A stretch of 64,000 nucleotides of DNA from Nanobdellota archaeon (GCA_051819805.1 JBNJHD010000001.1:8962-72961), one strand, 5' to 3'. Shown: positions 302-61,880, numbered from the stretch's first letter. Made by a program: numbers and translations. The notes: generated from the sequence alone by a model not told the origin.

Positions 302-2923
302 TCATTCCAAGATGATTGCAGGTTTACCAGGGGACGCCTGCTGCGCCTTGCTTTCACTGCTGTTTTCACCACGCTCGATAATAACTTCTGCACCGAACTC
401 GCTTTTCAATTCTTCACTCAGTTCATCAAGAGCTTCGCGTTCTTTCTCCTGGCCGAGAAGCACCTCAGGAATCTTGGAAGGATCCTTGAGACAAGCAGGG
501 ATGAGCTTTGTGATCTGCTTACCATGAGTTCTCAACTCGCTTCTCATGATTTCAGGAACGATATCTTTAGGATTGCGCGTCTTCTCAATAAGACTTTTGA
601 ACACATTAAAGAACTCGTACTTCCACTCTGGCGAGATGATGAGCTTGATCTTCGAGGGATCGCTGATGTTAGCGATAGAAATGAGATTCTTGAGATCAGC
701 TTTGACGTTAGCGTGGAACTTCTCGACATACTCTGCAGTATCGTCGATGAGTTCGGGATTGAACTCCGGCCATGTCGCCTTGCTGATGTACGGCTCGTTA
801 CCGAGCTGCTCCCACCACTCCTCTGTAATATGGGGACAGATTGGATTCAAGAGGATAAGGAAGCTTTCAAGATCTTCCTTAGCGATCTCCTCATCAAACG
901 AAGAGAAGAGCTCTCTGATCTTGATAGTTGCCATATTATAACGGAACTTATCAATATCCTCGCTCACATCACGAATTGCACGTTGCACTTTGCTTTTAAC
1001 CTTGTCAGAAGAAGAGCCGAGCTTGACAGACTGCATGTACTTGTCAACACGATTGATGAACTTCAGACTACCTTCAATACCTGCTTCGCTCCAATCGATA
1101 TCCTTATCCGGTGATGCGACGCTGACAAGAAAGAAACGAGCAGTGTCAATGCCATATTTCTCTGAGACCGTTTCTGGAAGCTTGACATTACCCTTGCTCT
1201 TAGACATCTTGTTACCATTCTCACCGTGAAGCATTCCCTGATGAAACAATCGCTGGGTCGGCTCGTCAAACGTGAGAAGTCCTATGTCGCGAAGGAATTT
1301 CGTGTAGAAACGGAAATAGATCAAATGCATGCATGCATGCTCAGCACCACCTATATACTGGTCGACAGGAGCCCAGTAATCAGCTTTCTCAGGATCGAAG
1401 ATCGTATCATCATTATGCGGGTCCGTATAACGGAGGAAATACCATGATGAATTAACAAAAGTATCCATCGTGTCAGTCTCACGCTTGGCAGGAGATGCGC
1501 ACTTAGGACAAGATGTGTTGACAAATTCTTCATTTGTTTCAAGCGGGTTGCCCTCGCCGAACGTGACGTCATGAGGAAGCTCGACAGGTAAATCCTCTTC
1601 AGGGACAGGAACTGAGCCGCACTTGTCACAATGGATGATCGGAATCGGAGTTCCCCAGTAACGCTGTCTGGAAATGCCCCAGTCACGAAGCTTGAAGTTA
1701 ATAGTCTTTCTCGCAACATTTTTTTTCACGAGAGAGTCGGTAATCTTCTCTTTAGCTTCGTCGTTATCAAGACCGTCGAAGTCACCGGAATTCATGAGCT
1801 TGCCAGCGTCAGTGAACGCTCTCGTTTCAGTAAGATCTCCATCAATGACTTGCTTGATGTCAATACCGTACTTCTTAGCGAATTCGAAGTCACGTTGATC
1901 GTGAGCAGGGACAGCCATGACCATGCCAGAACCATAATCAGCAACGACGAAGTTACCAGCATACACTGGAACCTTCTCACCATTAGCAGGGTTGGTCGCA
2001 TACGCCCCAGTAAATACTCCTTCCTTCTCCATAGTATCAAGCTCTTTCTCAGAGACGCTATGGAGTTCTTTCAGGAATGCATTGACGTGCTCTTTCTGAT
2101 CGTCAGTTGTGATATCAAGAAGCCGTGAGTGTTGTGCGGAGATGACCATGAACGTCACACCGAAGATAGTGTCAGGACGCGTAGTGAACACAGGCCACTT
2201 TTCGCCGTTGATATCAAACTCAATCTCAGTGCCGTGGGACTTCCCGATCCAGTTCTTCTGCATCGCCTTGGTCCGCTCCGGCCAGTTTTTGAGGTTATCG
2301 ATATTATCATACAACTCTTCAGCGTAAGCGGTCGTCTTGAGAAACCACTGCTTGAGATGCTTGACCTCGACATCAGTATCCTCGTGACGCCAGCACTTGC
2401 CGCCTTCAACCTGCTCGTTAGCAAGAACGGTGTTACACTCAGGACACCAGTTGACCGCAGAGGTCTTCTGATACGCGAGACCTTTCTCGAACATCTTGAT
2501 AAATATCCACTGATCCCACTTGTAATACTCAGGGTCAGCAGTGCTTACGACACGACTCCAATCGTAGCTCAAGCCTAGACTCTTCTGTTGCTTGATGTAA
2601 TTCTTGATGGACTTGTCAGTATATTCTTTAGGGTGCTCACCAGCCTTGACTGCAGCATTCTCCGCAGGAAGGCCTAGGGAGTCATAACCCATAGGATGAA
2701 GGACGTTGAAACCACGAAGAAGCTTGTTACGAGCGTGAATGTCGCCGATAGTATAATTGAGAGCGTGACCCATGTGAAGGCCAGAGCCTGAAGGATAAGG
2801 AAACATCTCCAGCATGTAATACTTCTCTCTAGAATCATCTTTGACAACTTCAAAGACCTTGTCTTCATCCCACTTCTTCTGCCATTTCTTCTCGATAGCC
2901 TTGAAATCCATCATGAACACCAC
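302..2923 (-). CDS. leuS: Leucyl-tRNA synthetase (archaeal/eukaryal type)
   Basis: 873-aa ORF. N-terminus MMDFKAIEKKWQKKWDE matches LeuRS; HMGH (HIGH-class) motif and KMSKS motif are present (..NGNKMSKSKGN..), plus a CP1 editing-domain-like region. Confidence 0.9.
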   Translation of the reverse strand: MVFMMDFKAIEKKWQKKWDEDKVFEVVKDDSREKYYMLEMFPYPSGSGLHMGHALNYTIGDIHARNKLLRGFNVLHPMGYDSLGLPAENAAVKAGEHPKEYTDKSIKNYIKQQKSLGLSYDWSRVVSTADPEYYKWDQWIFIKMFEKGLAYQKTSAVNWCPECNTVLANEQVEGGKCWRHEDTDVEVKHLKQWFLKTTAYAEELYDNIDNLKNWPERTKAMQKNWIGKSHGTEIEFDINGEKWPVFTTRPDTIFGVTFMVISAQHSRLLDITTDDQKEHVNAFLKELHSVSEKELDTMEKEGVFTGAYATNPANGEKVPVYAGNFVVADYGSGMVMAVPAHDQRDFEFAKKYGIDIKQVIDGDLTETRAFTDAGKLMNSGDFDGLDNDEAKEKITDSLVKKNVARKTINFKLRDWGISRQRYWGTPIPIIHCDKCGSVPVPEEDLPVELPHDVTFGEGNPLETNEEFVNTSCPKCASPAKRETDTMDTFVNSSWYFLRYTDPHNDDTIFDPEKADYWAPVDQYIGGAEHACMHLIYFRFYTKFLRDIGLLTFDEPTQRLFHQGMLHGENGNKMSKSKGNVKLPETVSEKYGIDTARFFLVSVASPDKDIDWSEAGIEGSLKFINRVDKYMQSVKLGSSSDKVKSKVQRAIRDVSEDIDKFRYNMATIKIRELFSSFDEEIAKEDLESFLILLNPICPHITEEWWEQLGNEPYISKATWPEFNPELIDDTAEYVEKFHANVKADLKNLISIANISDPSKIKLIISPEWKYEFFNVFKSLIEKTRNPKDIVPEIMRSELRTHGKQITKLIPACLKDPSKIPEVLLGQEKEREALDELSEELKSEFGAEVIIERGENSSESKAQQASPGKPAIILE

Positions 2924-3055: not shown

Positions 3056-3181
3056 GGTGGCGTTAGTGTAACCTGGTTAGCACAAGGGACTGTGGCAGCG
3101 TATAAGCGGAGCTCATACGGACTTTCGCACATCGCATGCAGAAATCCCTTAGTCTGGGTTCGAATCCCAGGCGCCGCCCCA
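3056..3181 (+). tRNA. tRNA-His (anticodon GUG) with genomically encoded G-1 and a 48-nt intron at the canonical 37/38 position; CCA encoded
   Basis: Hand-folded. Acceptor g(-1)GTGGCGT pairs with GCGCCGC+C73 with two G-U pairs. D-arm GTGT/AACCTGGTTA/GCAC. Anticodon stem AGGGA...TCCCT with loop CU-GUG-G[intron 3096-3143]A. T-arm CTGGG-TTCGAAT-CCCAG; 3' CCA at 3179-3181. Confidence 0.65.
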
Positions 3182-5195: not shown

Positions 5196-5978
5196 ATGAA
5201 ACTTTCAGTCCAGAAAAAATCCGACGAGAAGCTGACGTTCACGCTCAACGGTGTGACTTCAGCATATGCCAACACGCTCCGACGACTCATGATCGGCGAG
5301 GTCCCGACCATGGCAATCGAAGACGTGACATTCAACAAGAACGACTCAATATTATATGATGAGATCCTCGCTCACCGACTGGGACTTGTTGTATTGACAA
5401 CGGATCTAGATTCGTACAATATGACTAGTGTGTGCAAGTGCAAAGGTGCAGGTTGCGCACAATGCCAGCTCAAGGTGACGCTAAGCGTAGAAGGTCCGAA
5501 GGCAGTCTATGCCAAGGACTTGAAAAGCGCTGATCCGAAGGTGAAACCGGTCTATCCGGACACTCTGCTCGTAAAACTCCGAGAAGGACAAAAATTAGAG
5601 TTTGAAGCGATAGCGACTCTCGGAACAGGTAAAGAGCATAGCAAATGGAATCCAGCACTTGTGTGGTATTACCACGAACCGACCATCAAGGTCAATAACA
5701 AGCATAAGGATTTCCAGAAGTTCAAGGATAAGTATCCGCCCCAAGTATTCAATAGTAAAGGGGAAATAGAAGTGGAGAGGATTTCGACACCACAACTCAT
5801 TGATGCAGTTGCTGACGTTAATAATGATATTGTCAACGTCAAGCTCAATAAGGATGCATTCGTGTTTACTGTGGAGTCATTCGGTGCAATGCCAGCACAG
5901 GAGATCGTTGCTCGGGCACTAAAAGTGTTCGATAACCATATAAAGGAATTTGAAAAGCTTGCGAAAAGCGAGCTTTAA
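5196..5978 (+). CDS. rpoD: DNA-directed RNA polymerase subunit D (Rpo3)
   Basis: Conserved position after S11. Cys cluster CKCKGAGCAQCQ (4Fe-4S/Zn-like domain 3 of archaeal Rpo3). Confidence 0.85.
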   Translation: MKLSVQKKSDEKLTFTLNGVTSAYANTLRRLMIGEVPTMAIEDVTFNKNDSILYDEILAHRLGLVVLTTDLDSYNMTSVCKCKGAGCAQCQLKVTLSVEGPKAVYAKDLKSADPKVKPVYPDTLLVKLREGQKLEFEAIATLGTGKEHSKWNPALVWYYHEPTIKVNNKHKDFQKFKDKYPPQVFNSKGEIEVERISTPQLIDAVADVNNDIVNVKLNKDAFVFTVESFGAMPAQEIVARALKVFDNHIKEFEKLAKSEL

Positions 5979-6024
5979 ACATTGATTCCATCAGCACGAC
6001 AATCACCAGATTGATATTTTTCGT

Positions 6025-6158
6025 GCGGGAGTGCCGGAGACGGTCGCTGTGTTCGATAATTCATTCGATCGTAGTGCTCGCCGGAGTGGTCAAACGGGCA
6101 CGGTTGAGGGCCGTGTGGCTTAGTGCCTGCGAGGGTTCGAAACCCTTCTCCCGCACCA
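6025..6158 (+). tRNA. tRNA-Leu (anticodon GAG), class II with long variable arm, carrying a ~47-nt intron at a non-canonical D-arm position; CCA encoded
   Basis: Acceptor GCGGGAG (6025-6031) is perfectly complementary to CTCCCGC (6148-6154), followed by A73 and CCA. D-arm CCG/GAGTGGTCAAA/CGG and anticodon arm CACGG-UUGAGGG-CCGUG. Variable stem GGC..GCC. T-arm GAGGG-TTCGAAA-CCCTT. A 47-nt insertion flanked by duplicated CCGGAG separates positions 8-9 from the D-arm. Confidence 0.6.
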
Positions 6159-6250
6159 TTAATTTCACTGATGATAAAACACACGTCAACTGGTGATTGG
6201 AACACACTGGTGGAAATATACACTAACAAGATACAAAGAAAGCGATTGTT

Positions 6251-6616
6251 GTGATCAAGATGAAACGAATCAAGAACGACTATGTGGAGGAGCTCATCAG
6301 AGAGCTGAAAACTCTTGCTATCAAGAAGGAAACGCCTCTCTGGAAGCGGATAGCTGTAGAGCTCGAAAAGCCCACGAGACAGAAAAGGGAAGTGAACGTC
6401 TTCAAGATAGAGCAATACGCTCGAGACGGAGAGACGATTATCGTCCCTGGTAAAGTGCTCGGTAGTGGGGCTATCAACAAGAAGGTCACTGTGGCAGCAC
6501 TGAACTTTTCAGACAGCGCACGTGACAAGATCCTCTCGAAAAAAGGGGAAGCACTCAGCATCCAGGCTCTCATGGACAAGAATCCGGACGCAAAGAAAGT
6601 CCGCATCATGGGGTAA
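6251..6616 (+). CDS. rpl18e: 50S ribosomal protein L18e (eL18)
   Basis: Conserved position and composition; KRIKNDYVEELIRELK...TPLWKRIAVELEKP resembles archaeal L18e. Confidence 0.75.
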   Translation: MIKMKRIKNDYVEELIRELKTLAIKKETPLWKRIAVELEKPTRQKREVNVFKIEQYARDGETIIVPGKVLGSGAINKKVTVAALNFSDSARDKILSKKGEALSIQALMDKNPDAKKVRIMG

Positions 6617-13568: not shown

Positions 13569-13901
13569 ATGGTCAAAAAACCTGTAAAGAAACGCTATTC
13601 AGCAATAAAAGATCGTCAGAATAAAATTGCAAAAAACCACGTCAGAGAACTGTATAATGAACAGAGAAAGCAACTCTACAGCGATAAGAAACTTGCTCAG
13701 CGCTATTCGGACCTAATAAGACGTATAAGTATGAAATTCAGACTGAAACTCCCTCGAGAAGTCAAACATTCCTATTGCAAGCATTGTAAGACTGTTTTTA
13801 TTCCAGGAGAGAATTGTAGAATTCGTCTTCAAGGAAAAAAGGTTGTTTACTATTGTTTCGAGTGTAAGAACTATACACGACTCCCTTATTGGAAACGATA
13901 A
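13569..13901 (+). CDS. rnp4: RNase P protein component 4 (Rpp21/Rpr2 family)
   Basis: Basic N-terminal helices followed by zinc ribbon CKHCKTVFIPGENCRIRLQGKKVVYYCFECKNY (CxxC...CxxC) typical of Rpr2/Rpp21. Confidence 0.6.
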   Translation: MVKKPVKKRYSAIKDRQNKIAKNHVRELYNEQRKQLYSDKKLAQRYSDLIRRISMKFRLKLPREVKHSYCKHCKTVFIPGENCRIRLQGKKVVYYCFECKNYTRLPYWKR

Positions 13902-32618: not shown

Positions 32619-35600
32619 TTGGTCATACTTAAGCGTACTTTAATATTTTTTATGCTGCTTAGTGTGGTGTTGTCGGGCGTAGCACTGACAATAGCTGCAT
32701 CTAGCGGGCAATCTATCAATCTATCTAGTTCTGGGACTCCTGTTTCTATCCGAATACCATCCCTGACTTCTGAAACCTTAGAACTCACCCTCTCAGGCAA
32801 TGAGTATAGTCCTATCGAGACGAAACGAGACCCTATACGCTACAACGATCCGGTCGGATGGCAGCTCATCCTTTCTAACGGCACGACCAACAAGAGTATT
32901 GACTATACCACACCCGAAATAACTGTCGATGAAAGCATTGATACGACTCCCTCGTCATGGCTTGCGACAATCACATTCTCAACACAAGCATCAACGACGT
33001 ACACTGACCTGCCATACACATTTGAAGCACCGACAACAAGAGATATAGCAACGTCCTCGCTTCTCAGTAAACTGTCAGCAGCAAATGACAGTGTAAGTTT
33101 TATACTGCCACAACTTCATTCTGAACGGACTATCATTATCACAGGAGCACTTGGTAACGGGACGTCACGAACTGCAGTGGCGGAAACTCCTGAAGGGATT
33201 TACACGATTGAGTTGAGCAGCGGTATTCCTGAGGAATTCACTGTGCAAAACGCTTCAATTTCAACCAAGCTTGAAGAACTCAGGACTAACCAGACTCTCA
33301 CTATGCATTTACACGCTCCTGTGGCACTTGATTCAGCAACGACATTCTATATCTGGAACCAAAAACAAAGCGAAAAAATTCCTCTCAGCTATTCTCTCGA
33401 ACATAATGGCACGCTGGCAATCATCAATATACCTCCTTCTCTTCTTGAAATGTTGAGCTTGCCAGAAACATCACAATACTTCTACGGGAATCTCGAACTG
33501 GCAATGGATAATGCTCGGTATTTCACATTCACCACGGATAAAGAATTCTACTTCCCTGAAGAGACAGTGACATTTAACATCCTCCCTGAGAATACGTCAT
33601 CGTTCATCTACGTGACGACTCCTTCTGGAGAACCTGAACTTATTACTGGAACAGAATACACTCCGGAAGTTCCAGGAACCTACACTGTTGATGCCTCGCT
33701 CTATCATGAGAATATCAGTGAAGAACAGGCTCTCACATTTGATGTTCTCAATGCCACTCTTGCAAATCAGACTGAGGATGAGATCGTTCTGGAATTCAAC
33801 AATACCTATGAAGGACAGCAAAAGACTATCAGAGCATCAGTCAAGATTCCTGAACATGCTCGAGACGTTGCCCAACAACTCAATACACTAGAGCAAGAAA
33901 TCAACGTCCTGAAGAAACAAGACGAATTATCAGAGTCATTGAATGCTGTTCAACAGGGATTCAGTGCAATGAGCGCATCAACGAATATGATACAGCAATC
34001 AAATGCTCCTGCTTCTGTGAAAGAACAGATTCTTCAGAAACGCCGGCTTCTCACGCAGAAACGAGAAGAGCTCAAAGAACGAGTCAACAATAGAGTAAAT
34101 GCGACAGTCAATCTCGCTAATTCATCCTCAGACAGGGTCAAATCAATCGCATTCAACAACCTGGAAATCAAGAACGACACGATCGATCTCGGATTCAAAG
34201 AAGATGTCGATATCAACGAAGCGACTTCAAGTTTTGCAGTCGATCCAGAACGAATTAATTTCACGAACGCAACTATCACAGTCAATGCGACAGGAAATTA
34301 TCTATACAAGTGTCGCGATTGGAATTTCAGCGGTCAATACTGTCCGGAACCAGTAACTACCTGTACTGGAGTCAAAGGTGTAAATAGGAGTTGCGAGACC
34401 TATGGCGGTTGGAAGAAACTCAAGAAAGTCACACCAGGACAACTCTACACGATTTCCGTAGTACCGAAAGACCCTGCGTATGCAGAGTATGATGCAACGT
34501 ACACTGCACCTTACTGTAACGTGAGCGAGTCACCATGTATCGCTAACTCGAGTGTGCTCATGTCTTCAGGCACATATACTAACCAAAATGAGCCTAACGA
34601 GCCCAATACAGTTGATGCTTGTACTGATGGTGGAAGCGGTACGTATGAGTCAGATGAGTATGTCCAGAATGTCACGATCACCAGTCTCAATAACAGCAAT
34701 TTCCAGACTGGAGACACAGTTAACGTGTCAGCATGGGTTCATATTTGGGGGACTGCTGATGATGTCGTCAACTTCGTTTACGCAAACGATGCATCAAGCC
34801 CGAGTTGGACAGTCAAGGCAGGAGATGTTCCTCTCGATGGAACCGGCTACCAGCAAGTGAGCACGACATTCACGCTTGATGAAGTGGTGGGAGACCATGT
34901 CATACGAGTGCTCAACGAGTATCAAGGAGCGGCAACGACTACCTGTGCAAGCAACGGATACCATGATAACGATGATGTCGTCTTCAAGGTTGATAGGAAA
35001 TTCAATGTAAGTAATGCCCAATATAATTCGACATTCGGAGCACCATACTGTAGTTACGGGGCAAGTCCATGTATTGCGTATTCAGAACTTCTCAAATCAG
35101 CAGGAACATACACTAATCAGGAAGAGCCGAACTATCCGAATACAATAGATGCATGTAGTGATGGTCATAGCGGTACGTATGAAGGTGATGAGTACGTTCA
35201 GAATATAACAATTGAAAGTCTGAATCATAGTACGCTGCAAGCGGGAGACACTATCAATATCACCGCATGGGTGAATGTTTATGATGCTGCAACTGATGTA
35301 GTGAATTTTGTTTACACGAATGATGCATCATCTCCTTCATGGACGGTGGTTGATGGAGATGTTCCTCTCGGAGGAACCGGCTACCAGCAAGTGAGCACGA
35401 CATTCACGCTTGATGAAGTGGTCGGAGATCATGTCATACGAGTGCTTAACGAGTACAACGGTGCAGCAACAACTACCTGTGCAAGCAACGGGTATCACGA
35501 TAACGATGATGTCGTCTTCAAAGTACAACAGGCTGATACAGCTATCAACTGGCTAAATGAAACTTGGAAGTGGAGAATGCCATTCAACATTTCCAATACA

Positions 35601-38600
35601 GCCGGAGATCTTACTGGTTTCCAAGTTCAAGTCAATCTCACGCCTAGCAACTTTGACTTTGAAAAAGCGAACGCAAACCTGAGCGATCTGCGATTCACGT
35701 ATTACGAACCTGATGCACAGACTGAAATCGAGATCCCTTACTATATAGAATCAAATACAAGTCTCGATTATAGCACAGACGCATACACTGCCAATATATG
35801 GATAAGAACTGATTTGGTCAATGATACGAACACCACACACTATGTCTACTATGGAAATCCTGATGCTCAAAGCGAATCGAATGCAAGCGCGGTCTTTGAT
35901 TATTACAATGGTTTCGAAAGCGAAGTGGGATTCACAGATGGTGATCTCACCCTGACCAGAGATACCAATTCATCAAAGAAAGGAGATTTTGGTGTCACAG
36001 GAAATGGCGGTGGCACTCATACTCAGGCATATCGGAGTGGTGTGAATAGTGGTAGGGATGTGATCTTTGAAGTCTGGACGAAGTCATATGATGATGGGGG
36101 AAGCCAGGATACATCCCTTGCCTCTATCGCATTCGGTCATCCTAATGCAGGCGCAACTACTGATGGTTATCAAGCATTCATCGATGAGAGAGACAACGGT
36201 GAAGCATTCGGTCTCAGAGAAAATTATGGTGTTGGAACTCTTACTGCTTCGGCAACACCATTGACATATTATAATACTTGGTACTTCCAACAAGCGATAT
36301 GGAAATCAAATGGAGAGCTCGTCCACAATCTATATGATGAAGATAAGAATCTTCTTGGTTCAATAACAGCGACAGACAACACCTATACGGATGGAGAGTA
36401 CGGTCTCGGTTTGTGGCAGGCAGCACACTTCGATGAGTACAGGGTGCGAAAATACGCAAATCCTACTCCTGGAATAAGCGGTACTGGTGACGGAGAATTC
36501 GTCGGAGTCATAAACGTCACTTTCGACGAACCTACTGATGGTGATAGTACAGATACGTACAACAGCTTCACGATGAACGGTACTGTCGAATGCATCCGAG
36601 GAAATGATTGCGGTAATATCAGTGTCTGGTACCAATACTACACAACAAGCACGCCAACACAATCAATCACCGAGACCACGACAGCAGACTTCGCAAGCTA
36701 TGAGAGTGAATACAACACGTCACAATCAAACGGCAAACTCTATCTGGAGAACAAGAACTCGGAAACCAGCTGGTGGGATGGTCTCTGGCTGTACAGGCAG
36801 AACTTCACAGTCTACAATCCGAACAGCGATACAATCACTGATTATCAAATCAATCTCCAACTGAACAGTTCAAACACGCAAAGCAACTTCCCATGGAGCA
36901 ACTCAGCAGAATTGCGATTCGTCGTGTATGACAATGATACTGGTGACACCACTCTGGTGGATCACTGGGTTGAATCATGGGATCAAAGCGGTCAGAACGC
37001 AAGCGTCTGGGTTGAGATTCCTGAGTTTGAAGCGCTCAATGATACGATACTGCACATATACTATGGGAACAGCGGAGCGGCAGATATCTCCAACGCTTCA
37101 GCAACAATGCTCTATCATGATGATTTTGAGGATGGAAACGATGATGGGTGGACAGAAGAGACAGGGTCGTGGAGTGTCACAAGCGGTGAATACCAACAGA
37201 CGACAGATATCACTGACTATCTCATCTCATCAGCGGGAAGCAGTTCGTGGACAGATTATACGGTAGAAGCTGATATCAACGTGACAAACGATGGATCGAC
37301 ACGACCATTCGCCGGTATCGTGACACGATTCCAAAATACTGATAATTATTATGTGGCTGTGCTTGATGACTCTACAAACCTTGCAATAAGAAATAGGGTC
37401 GGAGGGGCGTGGGATGTTCAGAACGACTACACGATAAGTTTCGATACTCTTGATTGGACGCATTTACGAGTCGATATCTATGATGATGGAGGACAAGATA
37501 CAGTCAAAGCCAGTGTCAACGGCTATACGCATGCACATAATTTTACCAATTTCAACTCTGGAAAAATTGGTCTTTTCACGCACGGCCACCAACCATACTT
37601 CGATAACGTCATCGTAAGGACATTCGCAGAACAAGAGCCGGTCATCACAGCAGGAACTGAAACAACTTTGGAGAGAGCATCACCGGGAGAATATCTCTCG
37701 GACGTGTTTGATACAGGATCATACGATGCTCAGTTCAAAGGAATAACCTGGAATGAAGAAACAGATGCTGACACGACACTCAACATATACACGAGAACAT
37801 CTCCTGATAATGTATCGTGGTCGAACTGGTTCTTAGAAATATCAGGAAATACTATCAGTTCACCAAAGGATAACAGATACATCCAATACAAGGCTGAGAT
37901 GGGCACGACCGATACTCAAAAGAGTCCCTTGCTTGATGATATCACTATCAATTACACTATTTTAAGCAAGTCATGGAAAAATATTTCTTTATCAGGTCAG
38001 ACCTTCACAACATCAAATCCTTATGAATGTGCTGTTCTCAGTGATAATTGCACACCATCATTAACTGTTCTACCAAAAGAGTTTGGTAATTATTCGCTCA
38101 GGTTCTTGGTTGATAATAATGATTATGATATTATCGATACAACAACTGAACCTCATAATATTACAGTATATCTTCAACCATCCTTTTCCTCGTTCACAGC
38201 AACAGTGAATCCGGTATCTATTAACGATACTACTGAACTCTCAGCAGTACTAGTTGATGGATCTTCCCAATCATTATCAGGATATAATATTACTTTCTAT
38301 GATGAGACACATAATGGTACTGACAGGTATGAAATAGGATCGACACTGACTGATGCTTCAGGAGTGGCAACTATTGATTATCAAGTTCCTATTGATGGAC
38401 AGCTCTCGATTCACACGCTCAACGCAAGCTATGCTGGCGACCTATCTGAGTTCAAGAAAGGAATTGAAGTTACTCGTTCTCTTACAGTCTCTTCAACACC
38501 TAAGTTCAATGCTATTTCAGTCAATCCTGAAAATATCGGTTTCGGAAAGAACCTGACAATCGCAGCCAACATCACAGATGCTGTCGGTCTTTCAACAGTC

Positions 38601-41600
38601 AAGATCAACATCACGGACGAATCAGGAACGACAACACAGTATGACATGGCATTATCAGGACAGTTGTACGAATATACATTCCCTGAAAAATGGGAGACTG
38701 AAGAATATGAGTTCATGATTATAGCAACGAATAATGATGGTATAAGATCAATTTCAGAAACTAGATCATTTGCAGTAGATGTCACTGCAGAATTCGATAT
38801 TGTTACTGAGAAGGATGAATATAAGAATGAAGAACTTGTCAATCTTAAACTAGTGAAAGATGGTTGGTATTATCTTGGATGGACACACCGGACTCCAATC
38901 ACTGTTGTAAGCCAGAACAAACTGAAAGACTTCCAGATATCGTTTGAACTAGATGAAGAGAACTTTCAATTCAATCAGGCTAATGCTGATGGAAGCGATA
39001 TACGGGTAACATATCTCAATAAAACTAGTGGAAACGAGGAAACAATTCCTCATTGGATCGACTCATTCAATAGAACGTCAGAAGAAGCAACTATCTGGGT
39101 AAAAACACCTCTTCTGGATGATGCTATTGATAATGTATTCTACATTTATTACGGAAACGATACTGCGACAACGACAAGCAACGGTACAGATACATTTCTC
39201 TACTTCGAAGACTTCGAAGGAACATTTACCTGGACTGACTATGGTTCAGGAAGCGTTGTGAAAGACTCGACAAGGTCATATGACAACACTTACTCCGGAC
39301 ATAAGATCAACAACAACGATCCTAACGGTGCATACGATGATGTTGGTTTCACGTTCGGACGTGATGTCATCATGGAATTCTGGGTGAATAGGAACGCAGG
39401 ATTTACTGGTGGAAACCAAGATAGGGTTGGTTTCATCGATAATAGCGGTAACGGTTATGGATGGGTATTTATCCATAGTGGTTCTGAAATCGCAGCAGAC
39501 AGGCGTGATTCATATACTGGAAGTAATCTTCCAGGAACAACTGCTACTGATTATACTGACACATGGGTCTTCGGTCGGTTCGTGGTCAAATCGAACGGTG
39601 TCGTAGAAGCATACCGATATGTGAATGACACGTTAGCAGGAAGTATGGCAATCACAGATAATACATACAATAGTTTCACACGAGCATATATCTTTGGTGG
39701 AAACGATTACTGGGTGGATGATATCAGGATCAGGAATTATGATGCAGGAGTCATCGAAAAACAATACAAGATGACAGAACAAGGAATCCATGGACTCCTC
39801 AACAAAGGAGATACTGAATTTGAAGGACAACTAAGAATGCTCGTCCAGGAATGGACAGGATCAAGCTGGCAGAATATCATGCCACCTGTTGTTGAAGATG
39901 AATGGACGAATGTCAGCGGATATGAAGCAATCGAACTTTCAGGTCTTTGGGATGCAAAAGGTGCTTGGAACACTTCAAACCGTGATTCAGGAACATACAG
40001 AGTATATGCTATTATGGAAGATCCTTCCTATAATACGCTATACACTACAGATGGTCAACCGCTTATCGGAACGTACAATTTCACGATCATACAATCATCA
40101 GTAGAGCTGGAAAACCTCACTCACGAGAATGAACATGAAGACACGATCAACGAATACGAAACAGGAGATGTCATCGACTGGATCAACGCGACTGTCAAAG
40201 CGTATGACAACACAGCGTACAATGCCTATGTTAACCTCTCACTCTATGATGATTCTAAACAACCTCTTCCATGGGGGCCTCAAGAAGAGCTCAAGAACTG
40301 TGGAACACTGACTGAAGGAAGCACATGCGAACGACAGTGGACGAATTCCAGCAACGGTTACATCATTCCTCAAGATGCAATTGCAGGAACCTACACCTTC
40401 TACTGGAATGTCAAGTCAGATTCCGATAATGGACCTGTCAACATCAACGACTCAACATCATTCACCATCCACAGTGTCCCATCAACAGTCTCAAGTGCTC
40501 TTGAGAAGATCCGTGTAGAAAAACCTAACTCTACACTCTACAACTTCACGTTCACGAACCCTTGGAGCGAATCGCTCACAAGTACGACTGCGACAATCAA
40601 TTGTCCGACGATGAGCGGCTTTGAGTGCGATTCACTCGTGTCAGGAACAAGAACTGAAAATATAGGTACGGTCACTTCTTCAGACACAGTTACGGTACAG
40701 TTCAATGTCTCGGCTAACGAAAGCGTACCATCCGACAACTATAACATCTCAATAGAACTCAATTACACTAACCCTGGTGCTGAAGATAAAAGCTGGTCAG
40801 GACTCGGTGAGCAGATTGTGGAAGTGAGAATCGCAGGTATACTCGAGATTACAGACTTTTACCATCCTAATAATATTACACGAGGTATCACTTATGACTT
40901 TGATTCCCATATGAACAATTCAGCAGATAATACTGCCAATAATGCATGGTTGAACTACACCTTGCCTGCATCATGGCAACTCATCTCAGGAACCTTAAGC
41001 ACAACTTTCGGTAGTCTTGCACCTGGTGAGATCGGTTGGAACAATATCTCTGCACAACCAGAAGCAGATGCACCTCTTGGACCACGTCAAGTGCGTCTCG
41101 ATTCCGGAGCCGATGATGGTAGGTATGATTTCAAGGTATATTCGGTTGATGTGTACGCTCAAACAAATATCAATGCTTCAAAAGATCGTTATATCGTCAA
41201 CAGAGGAGAGAATGTTAATCTTTCAGCAACATTATATTATGACAACTCATCAACTATCAACGGTCAAGAAATCGAATTCGTCGACACGCGAACAGCGACA
41301 ACAATCGGAACTGCAACAACTAACACGAGTGGAGTAGCGACCATCCCTTATTATATCAACTCAACATCTCCGCTTGGAACTCACACAATAAATGTGACTT
41401 TTGATGGTAGCGTGACTGACTATCTCCGTCCAAGCTATAACACCACAGATATCAATATTCATGAAGTACCTGAAATATCGAATATAGTGATTTCTCCAAA
41501 TGTGACCAGCTATGGACAGGACATATGGATTAACGCGACGATAACAGATACTGATGATGTCGATAGCGCATGGTATGAGATCACATTCCCTAACGGCACT

Positions 41601-44600
41601 GCAAAGAATTATTCGATGAACAATATTCCTCCTTCAGACTACTATTCAATATTCAATGATACGTGGCAGAACGGAACTTACTCTATAATCATCTATGCGA
41701 ATGATACAACATCTGCACGATCACAAAGCGAAGAATTATTCATCATCGACAACGCTGATCTGACACTAGGACTCTTGACAGATTATCCTTCTTACGGACA
41801 GAATTCGGATGTCAATCTGCTGCCGACCACTGCAACGACGTGGTGGAATACGAATTACGGATATAAGCGAGTGAGAAATATCACGAACACTGCAGGAAAC
41901 CTGACCGAATACCAATTCTTCATTGAAGAGAACCTGTCACAAGCATATGCAGATGACCTTATCAACGATGATTGTAAGAGTGTGAGGTTCACTTATTATA
42001 ACAGCACTTCAAGAAAAGAAGAGAGAATACCATACTATGTTGATTATTGTAACTTGACCGTCGAAGATAATGCCGGGTTCTGGGTGAAAGTTCCTTTCCT
42101 TGAAAATGATACTGACACGAGAATTTCAATGTATTATGGTAACACGCAAGCGGACTCAGAAAGCAATCTCACTGAAGTATTCACCTATGATACTAGACAA
42201 ACAATAGGTTATGTCGTTTCAGATCTCACTGCAACAAATGGAGTGACGTTGACAGGAATAACTGCTGAAGGGTCGAATGTGCAAGTGGGAGGTTCAGTTT
42301 ATACTATCGGTGAGCTCCAGACAAGAACCCCTGGTACTTTAGAAGTATATGACCCGATCAAAGCAACGAATCCTGTACAAGTCGAAGGAAATGGTGCATA
42401 TGATGGTGTTGTCGTTCCGATATCATGGGCTTCAACAGAGTTCCTGCTCGCAGGAATGAGGGGAACAGAAGATTTCTGTATGCTCAGTCCTTGGGGTGAT
42501 GCTAGTGTTGACATCTATGATGGAAGCAGTGGAACGCCTGAGTGGAGTGGCACTATCAATAACACCGGAAACTGTATCAATAACGATATTACTGAACGGA
42601 ATACCGGACGTATCACTTCGGACAAGCCAATTCTCTTATTCAAGTCAACTTCCGATAGCAATGACGCTTATCCTGTGTATCCGGCTACAGATGAAGACTT
42701 ATATCTCGCTTCACTTTCCAATCAAGGGTATGTGGCTGCGGGAACGACAAGCACGACTGTTGACTTCTACGGAAGCAGTGGTGGAACAGGTTCAGAAACG
42801 ATACAGAATGTTGATGCGAATGCTGCCACTTACCTTACTACTGGAGATTCAGGATCAGGAGATGCAGTACGGTTCTCTGCAGATAATCCTGTAGGAGCTA
42901 TCCAGCAGGCAGACCATGACGGAACCGAATCCAGTGTTGCAGTACCTCGAAAAGAGATGAGTCCTGAATTTGCAGCAGCACATGACGCGCAATATATTGC
43001 TGTAGTGTCTGGCGATCAAGATGTTTCTTGTAGCATTTACGATACGAATGGACTGGTAGCTACAAACACTACAACGGGAAGCATAGCTAATCGTGTCTAC
43101 AAGACCTGCTTCGGCTGTGGCAATGATAATATCTTTGTCAATGGTCCGTGGAAGTTGGAATGTGACAAACCAGTGTGGGCGTATTATGAAGAGAACACTG
43201 ATGATGCGGAAACGAACATGATCAGTTATAAGCAGATGAGAACGAAAGTCTATCCAGAACCTGTAGTTTCAGAAAGTGAAGAACAGCAAGTGGGATCGCA
43301 CATATTCAACGACTTTGAAGATCAGGCATCAGGATACCTCTACCTGACAATCCAGACAAACAACTCAGGAAGCTGGCAACATGTCGATACAGTCGTTGAT
43401 GACATATCAACATCCACAAAAAGGGATATTCCACTCGTCTCAGGTCTCGATCTTTCATCAATATGGAATGCCACTCCGTGGAATACTGCCAATTATGATG
43501 CAGGAACATACAAGGTGTATGGTGAATTAAGGGCTCCTGATGGTTCTGTCCTTGAAAACACTAACGGGTCTGACATCAATGGATACTGGACTTTTACCAT
43601 CGAAGAACCCGATCTCCAACTTGATCTTGATGATATAAGAATATATGATCTTTCAAATACTGATAACTCAAATTGGCATTATTATACGAACGATCTTGAG
43701 GGTTCGGGTCTGAACACAACCTATACTTTAGGAAAAGATAAAATATACAGGGTTGAGGTTGATATACTCAATTCAGGAAGTTCCACATGGGATATCAACG
43801 AGACAGATGTGGATTACAATTATTTGAATAGTGTCTGGCCTGTCAATGAGACAGATGATATATGGTATTCAGATAAAACATCAATCTCCGATCGGAGAAA
43901 CGATGCTACAAAAACAACAGGTTCATTCGATGGGAATGTCTCATGGGATACTCTTGCTGATGATGGTAGCGTGAGTTCCTCAGGAACAGCAACGTTCTTC
44001 TTCATAGTCAACACGAGCACTGAAGAGACAAGACAAGTGAACTTCAATATAGAACACAGCACGTTCATCAAGAGTGATTATTCTACGTGGGAAATTATTG
44101 ATCTTGATGAAGAAATACCTTATATCATCAATGATAATTATAACATCACTACACTTGATATCATCCGAGGTAATGATTTAACCTTATTCGGTCAATGGAA
44201 TGAAGAGATTGATATGGCTAATGCCACCTACTCCACTTCAGGTCCTTCGACATATGTCACCACAACAGACACTAATCCTGGAGGAAACTGGACGAACTTC
44301 ACGATAACAAGCTATCCGACATGGTATCTGGGAGATCATGATGCGAAGCTCACTGCAAAAGACAAGAGCGGTAATGTGAATGACACGCTCGCTTATATTC
44401 CGTTCACAATCTGGGGTCTGGCGCAGATAGAGAGTATGACGTCAGATAACGAACCAGCAACAGAGCAGGAAAACGCAGTCTATGACACAGCTTATACAAC
44501 ACCATATTGTAACTCAACACGTTCACCATGTGTCGCTAACTCGAGCCTGCTCATGTCTTCAAATTCATATACTGATCAAAATGAGCCGAACCAGCCGAAT

Positions 44601-47600
44601 ACTGTTGATGGCTGTGCTGATGGTGGAAGTGGAGGATATGAAAGTGATGAATACGTCCAGAACATCACTATAGAAAGCTTGAACCATACGCTCATCCAAC
44701 GAGGAGACACGGTCAATGTCACAGCAACTGTATATGTTTATGATACCAATTCCGATTTTGTCAACTTCGTCTATGCGAATAACGCGTCAAGTCCAAGCTG
44801 GACAGTCATGGCGGGAGATGTGGCGCTGCCTGGAACCGGCTATCAGCAAGTGAGCACGACATTCAAGCTTGATGATGTATCAGGAGACCATGTCATTCGA
44901 GTCCTCAACGAGTACAATGGAGCAGCAACGACTACCTGTGCAAGCAACGGCTATCACGATAACGATGATGTGGTTTTTACCGTAGCAGAAGAGAATATTC
45001 CATTGCGATGTAAAGTGGTCGATGCGACAGACAGCGATAGTCCTATAGAAAACTATAACGTATCATTCTATAACAATGACGGACTGCTTGACTGGAAACT
45101 GACAGATTCACAAGGATACGCATATTACAGGTATTATGATCAGTCTCCAGGACCTGAAACACTCTCCTGTAAGATAAGAAATGATACAGTCAATTATTAC
45201 AAGACAGACAGCAATAACGAAAGTTCAATCAATATCAACACACTAGAAGATATTCCGCCGACATACTCAAGCGTTTCAGGACCTACGCCGGTACACAAGG
45301 GAGATGTCATTACGCTCTCGACATTATGGCAGGATAACTATCAACTAGACACTGCAACACTCCAGATAAACACGAGCGGAGCATACGTCGATGAAGATAC
45401 TATTGCTCTCTCTGGAAATGAGAGCTGGGCGAACTTCAGCTATACAATCTCTAACTCATTGCTTCCAGGAACCTTCGGGTGGAGACAGATCGCAAACGAC
45501 ACGTCAAAGAATACGAACCAGACTCCTGATCAGACATTAGAAGTGTGGGGATACTCGCGAGTCGATTCTTCATCAATCTCGCCTTCTAGCATCCAGGAGA
45601 CGAACAGCACGACGATGACATGTACAGTGCAAGATGCAGGTGACAACAGTGGACTTCAGGACTATGCAGTCTACTTCTGGTACAAGAACTCAAGTGAAAG
45701 TACATACACGGCTCTCGGTAGCAACACTACAGATGCAAGTGGACAGGCGAGCTACTCGTTTGTCGTTAATACAGCAGCAACATATGATGTGAAATGTAAT
45801 ATCACTGACAATGCAACGCAACAATATAATGTATCAAGTCCTGATAATAGGATTGAAGAACTGAATGTTATCGTAGGTGATGATACCCGACCGCCACAAA
45901 TCATCGGAGAAAACTATACAGTCACACCATCTCTGGTTCACAGAGGAGGCTGCATCGATATTTCAGGATTATGGGATGAAAATATCAGCGAAGCGTACGT
46001 CAGATACAACCAGACATCAACTGAATATACGCAAGTGAACATCTCAAGCCCGTACACTGGCAACTGGACGAACACGACCATCTGCACGAACGAGACATGG
46101 GATCTTGATGACTATACGTTCAAACTATTTGCAAAAGATCTAGAAGGAAATCGTAATGACACGCTCTCCTACAAGACAGTCGCAGTCAAAGGGCTGGCTC
46201 AACTTGAATGGGATGCGCCGACAGGAGACCAGAACAGGACTACGCTGAATGTCAGCTGTAAGGTCATCGATAACGAGACCGCTAACCCTATATCCGGATA
46301 TCCAGTAACGTTCTACGATGGGGATAAAGGTATTTCAATAGGAAATGATGATACGAACGCTTCAGGAATCGCACAGATACAATACGATTACTCGGGAGCG
46401 CTTGTCGGACCTGATGAACTCTCATGTACATTCAGCGATGAACCATCGCTCAACTACGAAACGACAGGATCAACAACTGTCTCAGAGACAATTGACTTCT
46501 ACGGATACCTCAACGCGACAATAGCAACCCCTGTTTCCGACCAGATCCTCCACAGAGGAACTGGAGAGTCGCTAGAGGTAAACGTCGTCGACGAGTTCGG
46601 TAACACGCCGCTTGACCAAAACGGCAACACAGCAGCGCTGTCAGCGATCTGGAGAAACGCTTCTTCAGACCAGATAGCGACAGGTACGACCACTACCTGG
46701 AATGTTCCATCAAGTTACCAGCTCGGAAGCGATACTCTAGAAGTCGATGTCTCTGAGACTTATTATTACCCTGACAACGATAGCCAGAACGTAGAGATAT
46801 GGAGCTATGCGCAAGTGGACTTGACAAGCCCGACTGCAGACACATACGGTGCTGGAGTCAATCTTGATATCAACTGTACCGTGACTGACGAAGCAAGCAC
46901 TGATTCTATTTCCGGCTACGATGTCAACTTTTATGATAATGGGGCCTTGCTCGGCACAGGGACAAGTGATGCCGCTGGAGAAGCGAGCTTGACCGTCAGC
47001 ACGGACACGCTCGGAGATGGCAGTCATGACTTGAGCTGTAACATCAGCGACAATCCTATAAACTATTATGAGGCAGGAGCGAACAAGGAAGATCTCGTCA
47101 GCATAACAGTAGACGGCTCGACACCGGAAATCTCATACGCTGCCAATACGGATACGAACGGAACGTATGACAAGACATGGATACTCGTCAATGTCACGTC
47201 AGTAGAAAGCAATCCTGACACTGCACTGCTCTACTGGAACGGAGTCCCTGAAGAATTCACTTACACGGACGGAACGAACTACTGGGTCAACAAGTCAGTA
47301 CTCTCAGACGGCAATTATGAGTTCTATGCGTACATCAACGATACAGCCGGCAATGAGAACCAGACCGGACTACGGAACGTCACGCTCGATACGACAGCTC
47401 CAGTAGTCACGCTCGACAATCCGCTCAACACGACATACAACACGTCATCATTTGATCTCAATTATACAGTCGTCGAAGAGAATCCTGATACGTGCTGGTA
47501 CAAGATAGACAGCAATCCGAACCAGACGATAGCAGGCTGTTCCAACATCACGATAGGATCGCTCGGCGAGGGAACACATACAGTCGTTATAGCAGCTAGC

Positions 47601-50600
47601 GATACGGTCGGACATGTTGACGAGGACAATGTCACATTCACGATAGACCAGACACTACCACAAGTCACAATAGATAACCCAGTGCTCGGTGTTGAATACA
47701 CTGATAATGATGTCGATCTCAATTACACAGTCAGTGATGACAGGAATGTGGATGAATGCTGGTATAAGCTCAATGGTGGAACCAAAGTCGCCATGCCAAG
47801 CTGCCAGAACACGACACTTACCAGTCTATCAAACGACAACCACACGATAGAAGTCTTCGCTAACGATACGGCAGGAAACATCAACTCATCATCACTCTGG
47901 TTTGAAGTGAACTATAGCGTGCTCACAGCAACACCACTTTATCCCGATAATGATACGATCATTGCCAGTCAGACGATAAATGTCAATGTCACGACGAACA
48001 AGCAGGCGAACGAGTGTAACTACTCTCTTGACGGTGGGGCTTATACTCCGATGACAAACTATACGTTGCTGGACTGGTCAGCATCAGCAGGTCCGCTCAC
48101 TGAATCAACACATAACGTCAGATTTACCTGTACAGATGGTATCAACACGTCAACGACAGATTTGGTCTATTTCACGATCGACGTGACAGGACCGACGATC
48201 ACCTATGAACTACCTACACCGGGAGATGGTGATGGTCGAGGAGTAGATTGGGCGGTTGTCAACGTCACGCTTGACGAACCGGGAGATACAGCGCTGCTCG
48301 AATGGGAGAACAGCACAGCTATCACGAACATCACGATGAACCAGCACAATAGCACCAGCTACTGGTACAACATGTCAGGACTGGCAGATGCGACGTACAA
48401 CTACACAGTCTACGCCAATGACACGATCGGCAACATGAACAACGCTTCAACACGAGAAGTGATCATATCAACAACAGCACCAGTCATACAACTGGATAGT
48501 CCGACAGCACAGGAATACACGACTAGTGTTATCGATCTGAATGTGAGTTCGAACATGGAAATTGATGAATGGTGGTATGAGTTCAATGGACGTAATTTCT
48601 CACTGATACCTAACACCACTATCACTGCAGAAATGAACGAGAATAAAATTACTGTCTATGGTAATGATACTTTCGGAAATATAGGAAATGAAAGCGTCAC
48701 GTTCATTGTGAATGCGACATCCTGGACGGATGACTTCACTGGACTCACAGGAATTTCCAGTAGCAGTAATGTAAAAACCGGAGGGGCTGCTCAGATCGAT
48801 CCGTGCTGGCCACTCTATCACGAAGAGGACAGTGACGACTATAACAGGGATACGTGCTGGCATTATCGAAAACCAGTAACAATAAGCGCGTCATCGCAGC
48901 TTAAAGACTACCAGATGCTACTCAACATCGACTTGAGCACTGAATACTCGCAAGGAAAACTACAGGATAACTGTGAAGACCTCAGATTAAGCTATTACAA
49001 CAGCACGAGCGGCGATGACCAGAAGATCAGTCACTGGATAGAAGATTGCAGCGACAAGAGCAACATCAGCGTGTGGGTCAAATCACCGCAGATAGACACT
49101 AGCTCGACAACACTGCATGCCTATTATGGAAATGACCGGGCAGGAGATAGTTCCAACGGAACGGCAGTCTTTGAGATGTTTGATAACTTCAACACAGTCT
49201 CATCGACGGACTGGGGAAGCAATGCAGCTAACTGGAACACTGAAAAAGGAGTGGCGTATCCGACTGTATCAGGATCAAGCTCCCGACTCACTCACGACTA
49301 TTCATTCGGCAGCACTTACGCAACAGAACTCTATATGAAAGCGAACGCGACAAGCGGTTCAGCAGGTTACTACGGACTTGGTAACGGTGCAGGAACAAAG
49401 TATTTACGACTCTATCTTGAACCGTCAAATAATAGGGTAAGTCTCTACAATGGAGCGAATAATTACTACTCTCTCGATTCAGGATCGTACCAGAAATACA
49501 CTATCATCTCAGACTATACGAATGATGAATACAAACTGCTCATCAACAATTCACAAACAGCACTTGATCTCTCATCAGCAGCATCATCAAGTACATCGTC
49601 GCCCACGTTCTATTCATACTATACTAACGGTCTTTATCTTGATCACATAGCGATAAGGAAGTATGCAGGTAATACTCCTTCCATGGATGCTATTGGTGCT
49701 GAACAGCAACCGACAGTCAATGGATCAGTGGAAAGCATTGTCGTCAAACCTCTCGAACTCTATAGTTGGGATACGTTTTCAGCAACAGTAAATACTCCTG
49801 GAACGACCAGTCTCACCTTCCACCTACTTAATGAATCGGGAAGCGATCTCTGTGGTGACATCTCTGAAGCACAGATAACAAGCGGTTATGAAGTCTGTAG
49901 CGCTGCAAACTCATATGATAGTATTGTTCTTCAGGCAAACTTGACGACAGCTTCATCATCCGAAACACCGCAGATAGACTCATGGACCATCAACTGGAGC
50001 GAAACAATAACGACACAACCTGATCTCATCATCAATTCGATAAACTTCACGCCAGAAAGGTTCATCGAGAACAAGAACGTGACTGTCAATATCAACGTGT
50101 CAAACAACGGAAGCGCGGACGCAGGAGAATCAACAGTTAGGCTCAATGTCTTGCTCTGGAAAGGGAGCAGGATTCTCAAGAAAACATACGAAGAGAATGT
50201 GACTTTACCAGTAGGAGCGTCGACAATCGTCAGCTTCAACTGGACAGCAGCCATAGGAACGCACATCTTTGACGCGTATGCCGATGCAGATAATGTTATT
50301 CTCGAAAGCAATGAGACAAACAACAACCTCACAGTCAACGGTTCCACGTCAGCATGGCAGACGTTCTACGGGAACTACAGCTATACCTACTTCCTAGGAG
50401 ATGCTGATAATAGGAGTTACATGAACTGGTCAAACTTCGTCGCAAAAGGAAACATATACTATTCAGATGTGGATGCCAGCTACTATCCATTCGACCTGCA
50501 ACCGCTTGACGGAACGAACGACTTCACAGAAGCGGATACAGCACTTGGCATGACATACTTCAACGATTCCATCAGTAAAGAATTCGACAGCAATAATGAT

Positions 50601-52130: not shown

Positions 52131-52138
52131 GATTGAAT

Positions 52139-53788: not shown

Positions 53789-53831
53789 ACGCTTATGGCT
53801 GGACAATAGGTAAAAGAGTGTGAGTGCAAAC

Positions 53832-55625: not shown

Positions 55626-55661
55626 ATGCATTTTCATCACATTCAGTAGGGGTTTTATGGG

Positions 55662-59761: not shown

Positions 59762-59805
59762 TACTATACATTCATTACTAAAGGCAAAAAATAAGAGGTG
59801 GTCAT

Positions 59806-61782: not shown

Positions 61783-61880
61783 ACCACTGTGGAGAAGTAG
61801 CACAGCTTTAAAAATGAATACTTCTCAGGAATTGAAATAAGAGAGTGTTATGATATAATGATCAATCTAATTATTGGGGT

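Follow-up and report, generated by a model that had tools for sequence, protein, structure and literature searches.

A tRNA-Leu(GAG) gene with a probable protein-spliced D-loop intron in a ribosomal protein and RNA polymerase operon of a Nanobdellota archaeon

Relaxed splice motifs in archaeal tRNA genes

The geometry of tRNA splicing in archaea is known from the canonical site at 37/38, where two 3-nt bulges flank a 4-bp helix, H, and each bulge is cut 2 nt in. Cleavage by the endonuclease EndA yields a 2',3'-cyclic phosphate and a 5'-OH, after which RtcB ligates the exons. Non-canonical archaeal tRNA introns with relaxed forms of this bulge-helix-bulge (BHB) motif, termed HBh' and hBH, were reportedly catalogued by Marck and Grosjean in 2003 and by Sugahara et al. 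in 2008. The BHB motif is described in a review (PMC4090602), which finds ample documentation of non-canonical BHB, HBh' and hBH introns, chiefly from Crenarchaeota and Nanoarchaeota. Its list of sites, open-ended and closing with "etc.", comprises 20/21, 22/23, 25/26, 29/30, 30/31, 45/46, 53/54, 56/57 and 59/60, plus 3/4 (PMC4090602). In Methanopyrus kandleri, pre-tRNA-Glu(UUC) has an HBh' intron in the D-loop, and experiments have shown that a broad-specificity EndA is needed for its efficient removal (PMC5829648). A survey of DPANN archaea that included a Woesearchaeota genome found alpha4-type EndAs with an "L3" insert in several lineages, associated with more tRNA gene disruption, and the incomplete tRNA sets of DPANN genomes point to disrupted genes that escape detection (PMC5829648). 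Relaxed motifs are likewise cut by the epsilon2 EndA of ARMAN-2 and by (alpha-beta)2 enzymes (PMC3239211).

Here we describe a locus of this kind in a window of 64 kb, by which we mean the whole stretch of DNA that was analysed. Positions 6025-6158 on the plus strand hold a class II tRNA-Leu(GAG) gene with an encoded CCA end, interrupted by a 47-nt intron. Taking together its sequence, the structures open to its RNA and the comparison with relatives, the locus is very probably a functional gene carrying one archaeal, protein-spliced intron of the BHB type between D-loop positions 15 and 16. Like the catalogued relaxed-BHB introns, this one is short, lies outside 37/38, combines a 4-bp H with 3-nt bulges and lacks one flanking helix; the exon strand of H would, as in those introns, re-pair into the tRNA body on splicing. 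The catalogued hosts are Thermoproteales/Crenarchaeota, whereas the present host belongs to Woesearchaeota/Nanobdellota (DPANN) and the site is 15/16 of a class II tRNA-Leu. With the M. kandleri intron it shares the HBh' motif and the D-loop, yet that intron resides in a different tRNA species, which has an extra canonical intron, and in a host with an (alpha-beta)2 EndA without specific loop, while the case described here is known from sequence alone. ARMAN-2, with its epsilon2 EndA, and the surveyed DPANN genomes belong to the same superphylum, have many introns at varied positions and, like the genome studied here, give incomplete tRNA sets with standard predictors; the ARMAN-2 examples in PMC3239211, however, lie at 59/60 and 53/54 in the T-loop and not in the D-loop. 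Both HBh' D-loop introns and heavily disrupted DPANN tRNA genes have thus been documented before (PMC5829648, PMC4090602, PMC3239211). The tRNA-Leu(GAG) intron belongs to a known type of archaeal intron, of which it is an unremarkable example, and leaves the current understanding of archaeal tRNA splicing unchanged. What it adds is a well-supported, covarying relaxed HBh' example in the D-loop, common to a DPANN clade and to tRNA-Leu isoacceptors, and the set of 15/16 introns offers natural substrates for the study of the little-characterised DPANN splicing endonucleases.

The interrupted gene and its predicted splice motif

The locus was singled out in a sequence-only reading of the window, which had recognised between rpoD and rpl18e a tRNA with acceptor, D-arm, GAG anticodon arm, long variable arm, T-arm and CCA, provided that 47 nt were removed from the D-arm region to leave a mature tRNA of about 87 nt. 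We find each of these parts where it had been placed, by sequence and by ARAGORN, and Pfam confirms the two flanking genes (Table 1). ARAGORN folds the 47-nt-deleted sequence as an 87-nt tRNA-Leu(GAG) in which the acceptor stem, D-stem and anticodon stem have 7, 3 and 5 bp and which also shows the long variable arm, the T-arm, A73 and the CCA end. The variable arm has a GGC/GCC stem, which along with A73 and the GAG anticodon characterises a class II tRNA-Leu. Written out along the DNA, the locus reads GCGGGAGTG-CCGGAG-(ACGG...GCTCGCCGGAG)-TGGTCAAACGGGC-ACGGTTGAGGGCCGT-..., after which come the T-arm, CTCCCGC, A and CCA. The 5' and 3' exons are collinear and contiguous within 134 nt, an arrangement distinct from that of split or permuted tRNA genes. 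Two ORFs overlap the gene, 5975-6415 on the minus strand and 6011-6196 on the plus strand; neither has a Pfam match, in agreement with their earlier dismissal as spurious.

Table 1. Coordinates in the window of the tRNA-Leu(GAG) gene, its predicted splice motif and neighbouring features
Feature	Position	Strand	Basis
5' exon, tRNA-Leu positions 1-15: acceptor 5' strand GCGGGAG (6025-6031), U8 G9, D-stem 5' strand CCG, G13 A14 G15	6025..6039	+	sequence; ARAGORN cloverleaf of spliced product
Intron, 47 nt, between tRNA positions 15 and 16 (D-loop)	6040..6086	+	removal restores tRNA; BHB register test; same site in relatives
3' exon, tRNA positions 16-73: D-loop remainder UGGUCAAA, D-stem 3' strand CGG, anticodon arm, long variable arm, T-arm, acceptor 3' strand, A73	6087..6155	+	sequence; ARAGORN; partial Rfam tRNA match
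Anticodon GAG (Leu; reads CUC/CUU)	6106..6108	+	ARAGORN
Acceptor 3' strand CTCCCGC	6148-6154	+	pairs with GCGGGAG 6025-6031
Discriminator A73	6155	+	sequence
Encoded CCA end	6156..6158	+	sequence
Direct repeat GCCGGAG (7 nt), copies 1 and 2	6033..6039 and 6080-6086	+	sequence
Central helix H, 5' strand CCGG (tRNA nt 10-13)	6034..6037	+	4/4 pairs with 6081-6084; local MFE fold; covariation
Central helix H, 3' strand CCGG (intron nt 42-45)	6081..6084	+	register test; local fold; covariation
5' splice-site bulge A-G/A, predicted cut 6039/6040	6038..6040	+	BHB geometry
3' splice-site trinucleotide A-G/U, predicted cut 6086/6087, no outer helix	6085..6087	+	BHB geometry
Intron hairpin h'	6041..6080	+	predicted folds; covariation
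tRNA-His(GUG) with intron, upstream of S13	3057-3178, G-1 at 3056	+	Rfam tRNA, 39.7 bits, above threshold
rpoD	5196-5978		Pfam
L18e (rpl18e)	6251-6616		Pfam

The last seven nucleotides of the 5' exon, GCCGGAG, recur at the end of the intron. The copies are separated by a 40-nt spacer and the repeat period of 47 nt equals the intron length, so that any cut after tRNA nucleotides 8 to 15 gives an identical mature sequence. All eight of these sequence-equivalent removals were therefore scored for H, the bulges, the inner helix h' and the outer helix h. Only one of the eight registers, the cut after nucleotide 15, gives both a complete helix H (4/4) and a helix h' (three pairs, one mismatch, four pairs). 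At this register removal of the intron restores the tRNA, the splice sites lie in bulges on opposite strands of a 4-bp H, and h' closes the 5' bulge. The register test thereby assigns the intron to 15/16, within the D-arm and away from 37/38, as had been proposed. In the predicted fold, h' next to the 5' bulge consists of 3 bp, one mismatch and then 7 bp, the pairings being 6041-6043/6078-6080, 6045-6051/6070-6076 and 6053-6056/6065-6068. The outer helix h between the 5' and 3' exons is absent at 15/16 (a mismatch, two pairs, three mismatches). Because h is absent, with G9 facing G17, the motif is a relaxed HBh' and not a strict hBHBh', and given that the 3' splice site is left open, cutting by an endonuclease of strict specificity, such as the alpha4 and alpha'2 EndAs that act on hBHBh', is not expected. 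Folding around the CCGGAG junctions, which the earlier reading had suggested as its own check, succeeds for the 15/16 register in this relaxed form.

Minimum free energy (MFE) predictions are unreliable for tRNAs, and local folding was used instead. When pre-tRNA nucleotides 8-65 are folded, the MFE structure is exactly the H-bulge-h' structure, at -19.0 kcal/mol. The full-length MFE fold has the intron hairpin but neither the cloverleaf nor H/BHB, and a hand-built BHB-plus-cloverleaf structure reaches -39.7 kcal/mol versus -55.7 kcal/mol for this fold, a comparison that we take as uninformative because the predicted optimum destroys the tRNA body too.

What does the direct repeat signify? It stems from helix H, whose CCGG is palindromic, together with the two bulges, each of which starts with AG. 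Among relatives the 3' copy reads CUGGAA, ACGGAA, UCGGAA, CCGGAU or CCGCAG, and given this divergence the direct repeat is not conserved. The duplicated flank that had drawn attention to the intron does exist, yet it is the 7-nt GCCGGAG and not CCGGAG, and it does not define the intron boundaries, being an incidental by-product of the palindromic helix and the similar bulges.

Orthologous genes and competing explanations

Protein homology assigns the host MAG to Woesearchaeota/Nanobdellota (DPANN), Nanobdellota being a phylum of archaea in the kingdom Nanobdellati. The RpoD of the window is 100% identical to an NCBI protein labelled "MAG: Nanobdellota archaeon", and the next proteins, from Woesearchaeota/Nanoarchaeota MAGs, are 81% and 79% identical. 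The best 80 loci in a species-representative genome set all come from DPANN MAGs of the Woesearchaeota/Nanobdellota group, some of the records being plainly mislabelled. ARAGORN detects a tRNA-Leu directly after rpoD in 50 of 80 related loci, 38 times without an intron and 12 times with an intron in the anticodon loop. The anticodon of these genes is GAG in nearly all and AAG in two. Further post-rpoD tRNA-Leu genes were found by eye in loci that have a large rpoD-L18e gap and no ARAGORN call. In six loci (L001, L015, L033, L037, L065 and L076) the 16-70 nt that separate rpoD from L18e hold no tRNA, so that tRNA-Leu(GAG) has there been lost from the operon or moved out of it; one of the six, L001, with an RpoD 71% identical, counts as a closer relative.

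How well are the two parts of the gene preserved? Without its CCA, the spliced window tRNA is identical end to end at 83 of 84 positions to the intronless tRNA-Leu(GAG) of L017, although the RpoD of L017 is only 51% identical. The 15/16 intron is found in 17 distinct sequences, in which the intron bodies are unrelated and 26-47 nt long. Six loci share the exon junctions, ...GUGCCGGAG before the intron and UGGYCAAACGGGC after it, around unrelated bodies of 43 nt in L010 (RpoD 77% identical), 45 nt in L002, 46 nt in both L003 and L006, 26 nt in L018 and 32 nt in L075. The closest relatives, L145 (GCA_046539405.1, RpoD 81%) and L147 (GCA_048626815.1, RpoD 79%), also have the intron at 15/16, and at two places in the hairpin where the intron of the window has wobble pairs, L145 has Watson-Crick pairs. 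CCA is encoded in L010, L003, L006 and L147, and not in L002 or L145.

A pattern scan of metagenome contigs gave 64 matches, including those to the form with a 24-nt spacer, GTGCCGGAG-N24-TGGCCAAACGGGC. Twelve of the 64 are tRNA-Leu genes with the 15/16 intron, their anticodons being GAG, CAG, UAG and UAA, and several of them carry additional introns in the anticodon loop or the T-loop. The remaining 52 matches were discarded, 46 with the 24-nt spacer as bacterial protein-coding sequence and 6 as other non-tRNA sequence. The 24-nt form matches a conserved, GC-rich bacterial coding sequence found in many soil metagenomes (within L081-L144), and such false positives call for caution in the pattern-based harvesting of tRNA genes.

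Covariation was assessed in a gap-free alignment of the junction region of 15 distinct sequences, which had been chosen on exon sequence only, so that the intron strands were free to vary. The 5' bulge is AG/N in all 15, and the 3' trinucleotide has A(G/A/U) before the cut and U after it. Helix H is fully paired in 12 of the 15 sequences and has one mismatch in the other 3, with 95% of cells paired. Standard pairs occupy 80% of cells at the true register versus 58.7% in shuffles, none of 500 of which reach 80%, and versus 29-47% at slid registers. Likewise, the covariation score is 0.585 as against 0.209 in shuffles, and 0 of 500 reach 0.585. The h' pair adjoining the bulge is paired in 100% of the sequences with 3 pair types, and the second h' pair in 93% with 5 pair types. 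This comparison shows exons under strong constraint and an insert in which the one conserved property is the ability to form H-bulge-h' at a single register.

Could the gene instead be dead, its D-arm broken when 40 nt were inserted and a 7-nt target site (GCCGGAG) was duplicated, leaving a pseudogene that is never spliced? The repeat is perfect on both sides of the insert, ARAGORN makes no call, the Rfam match is partial and below threshold, and Pfam finds no endonuclease gene in the 64-kb window, all of which would suit a pseudogene. Set against this, the exons have kept near-identity with the intronless orthologue of L017 across a wide distance in RpoD, inserts with unrelated bodies occupy the same site in 17 distinct sequences and their splice-motif helices covary, and in relatives the repeat has decayed while the pairing has been kept, which a target-site duplication does not predict. 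We therefore regard a dead gene as highly improbable. An equally slim chance is left to a real intron that is cut at another register within the repeat, for example after nucleotide 10, which would move the intron to 10/11. In the window itself the cuts after nucleotides 8-15 all yield the same mature sequence, and the nucleotide-10 register has a 4/4 central helix (GAGU/GCUC) and GC/C in both bulges. This register nevertheless has no h' helix (single pairs separated by two mismatches each, then a mismatch) and no h helix, and the H/h' covariation is confined to 15/16. Relatives with a diverged 3' copy, L002, L006, L018 and L075 among others, retain the CCGGAG-UGG D-loop of the intronless orthologues with the 15/16 cut only, which settles the register.

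There is precedent for an insert of another nature: the tRNA-Leu genes of some bacteria host group I introns, and in archaea certain tRNA introns, such as that of tRNA-Trp, encode C/D box RNAs. A self-splicing element or a guide-RNA carrier is nonetheless scarcely conceivable at this locus: 47 nt is far below the size of group I or group II introns (hundreds of nt), the region matches no Rfam family except tRNA, direct reading of the intron finds neither a C box (RUGAUGA) nor a D box (CUGA), and the intron bodies are not conserved between relatives. A protein-spliced intron at 15/16 is the reading that we follow below.

Introns at sites other than 15/16 were also seen in orthologous tRNA-Leu(GAG) genes. 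L064 has a 35-nt D-loop intron after linear nucleotide 24; L053 has a 44-nt intron after nucleotide 22 plus an anticodon-loop intron; in L062 the intron lies within the 3' strand of the D-stem; T-loop introns occur in L046 and L042, the latter gene having up to three introns; and L044 also belongs to this group. L039 has tandem duplicated copies of the tRNA-Leu 5' exon region besides an intron at another site. With introns at so many positions, this single gene is a hot spot at which introns are gained and lost. Brute-force intron location returned no solutions or spurious ones for L062, L042, L039 and L044.

Predicted maturation, gene detection and genomic setting

For the maturation of the transcript we infer the following course. 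In the precursor the D-stem 5' strand (C10-G13) would pair with CCGG at the intron 3' end, forming the 4-bp helix H. The bulge A14-G15/A would present the 5' splice site, closed by the long intron hairpin h', and on the other strand A-G/U16 would present the 3' splice site, open on its outer side as in a relaxed HBh'. EndA would cut after G15 and after the last intron base, and an RtcB-type ligase would join the exons, creating the predicted junction G15-U16, at which ...GUGCCGGAG is joined to UGGUCAAACGGG.... Freed from H, C10-C11-G12 would then pair with C23-G24-G25 as the D-stem of the 87-nt mature tRNA. The tRNA is probably co-transcribed with the operon, and RNase P together with processing at the 3' end would free it; the window encodes an Rpr2 subunit of RNase P at 13569-13901.

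Does the intron serve the cell? In most archaeal tRNAs G15 carries archaeosine. The intron lies directly 3' of G15, which occupies the second place in the 5' bulge of the precursor. Given that the intron adjoins G15 and keeps the D-stem 5' strand occupied, folding of the D-arm, modification of G15 or recognition by LeuRS could be gated by splicing. That the 15/16 intron is an old, lineage-wide feature of Woesearchaeal tRNA-Leu genes, retained as a maturation checkpoint and not as a neutral passenger, is an idea that we offer as speculation and think unlikely; its presence in GAG, CAG, UAG and UAA isoacceptors counts toward it. Another possible benefit is protection of the gene against elements that use tRNA genes as integration sites. 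Transposition of introns between tRNA genes has been proposed for Thermoproteales, and by analogy a spread of the 15/16 intron among tRNA-Leu paralogues by transposition is a possibility.

Among 44 ORFs and segments of ORFs from the window that were scanned with Pfam, none has an EndA domain (PF01974/PF02778), and Pfam found neither an EndA nor an RtcB gene in the 64-kb window. A regular expression for an EndA motif had no match in the window, and phmmer with an approximate M. jannaschii EndA query, a search to be taken as a lead only, had none in the window or in 144 loci. The sequence-only reading had argued that non-canonical intron positions require broad-specificity endonuclease forms found in particular archaeal clades, so that the intron would hint at phylogeny. 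The hint itself holds in so far as the host is a member of DPANN, a group known for disrupted tRNA genes (PMC5829648), but the link between position and endonuclease type is looser than claimed. EndA subunit type has been concluded to contribute little to substrate range (PMC5829648), and the step from intron position to endonuclease class, though it points the right way, is drawn too strictly. If the EndA of this lineage should be a plain alpha4 enzyme with only L3, the conserved HBh' substrate would provide a clean test of how broad specificity is gained.

The second tRNA gene of the window also has an intron. Its G-1 and its C73 discriminator identify it as tRNA-His(GUG). After the anticodon loop CUGUGG comes an intron of the BHB type, some 48-51 nt long and at or adjoining 37/38, whose presence shows that the host genome uses the protein-splicing pathway. 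A tRNA-His is found at the equivalent position in many related loci. The tRNA-Tyr(GUA) that ARAGORN calls at 3057 in intron mode has a misplaced intron and was rejected; the same miscall occurs in L002. The introns of the two genes are alike in that they share a genome and an operon neighbourhood, are of the BHB type and measure about 50 nt. They differ in that the tRNA-His intron is in the anticodon loop, at or next to 37/38, within a gene that Rfam finds, whereas the tRNA-Leu intron is in the D-loop and its gene scores below threshold.

Standard tools do not report the tRNA-Leu gene. ARAGORN in default mode finds no tRNA anywhere in the 64-kb window, and in intron mode, run over the whole window, it reports only the miscalled gene at 3057 and misses the tRNA-Leu at 6025-6158. 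At gathering thresholds Rfam reports a single tRNA in the window, 3057-3178, and not the tRNA-Leu locus. A permissive Rfam scan of 5950-6250 yields a tRNA match at 6080-6155 with 22.8 bits, below the gathering score of 29; this partial match was set aside, for it takes the second GCCGGAG copy as a false acceptor strand. Neither the gathering nor the permissive scan gives a credible family besides tRNA in the region, and the competing RNA family that would have spoken against a tRNA did not appear. The check by tRNA finders that had been put forward is therefore divided in its outcome: ARAGORN with intron mode misses the unspliced gene, and calls the spliced sequence Leu(GAG).

The chief practical value of the finding is the correction of annotation, both ARAGORN and the Rfam tRNA model having missed the gene. 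Given that finders miss it, an apparent absence of tRNA-Leu(GAG) from Woesearchaeota MAGs can be an artefact of prediction and not a real loss, and missed tRNA genes bear on claims about the tRNA complement and host dependence of DPANN archaea. A 2026 preprint on 208 complete Nanobdellota genomes lists order-level "missing" tRNAs from tRNAscan-SE output (10.64898/2026.05.13.725050). In the records of L145 (2408-2908) and L147 (2440-2910), the L18e calls are 166 and 156 aa long, versus 121 aa in the window. Both begin within the tRNA-Leu 3' exon, which suggests that the tRNA went unrecognised at gene calling.

The gene order given by Pfam is LeuRS (302-2923, minus strand), the tRNA at 3057-3178, S13, S4, S11, RpoD, tRNA-Leu, L18e, L13, S9 and RpoN. 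The LeuRS gene, about 3 kb upstream of tRNA-Leu and on the opposite strand, encodes 873 aa with a PF13603 editing domain. Farther along the window, a single ORF of 6089 aa (18.3 kb) occupies 32619-50888 on the plus strand; with its repeated DUF2341 and its CARDB, Ig-like and MG2/MG3-like domains it presumably encodes a giant surface or adhesion protein. It is followed at 50982-58250 by several ORFs of 380-860 aa with weak or no Pfam matches. A chemotaxis set lies at 58730-63887 on the plus strand, made up of a CheB methylesterase with receiver, a CheA histidine kinase with CheW domain and a methyl-accepting chemotaxis protein (MCP) with Cache and HAMP domains, a gene set of note for a small-genome DPANN archaeon.
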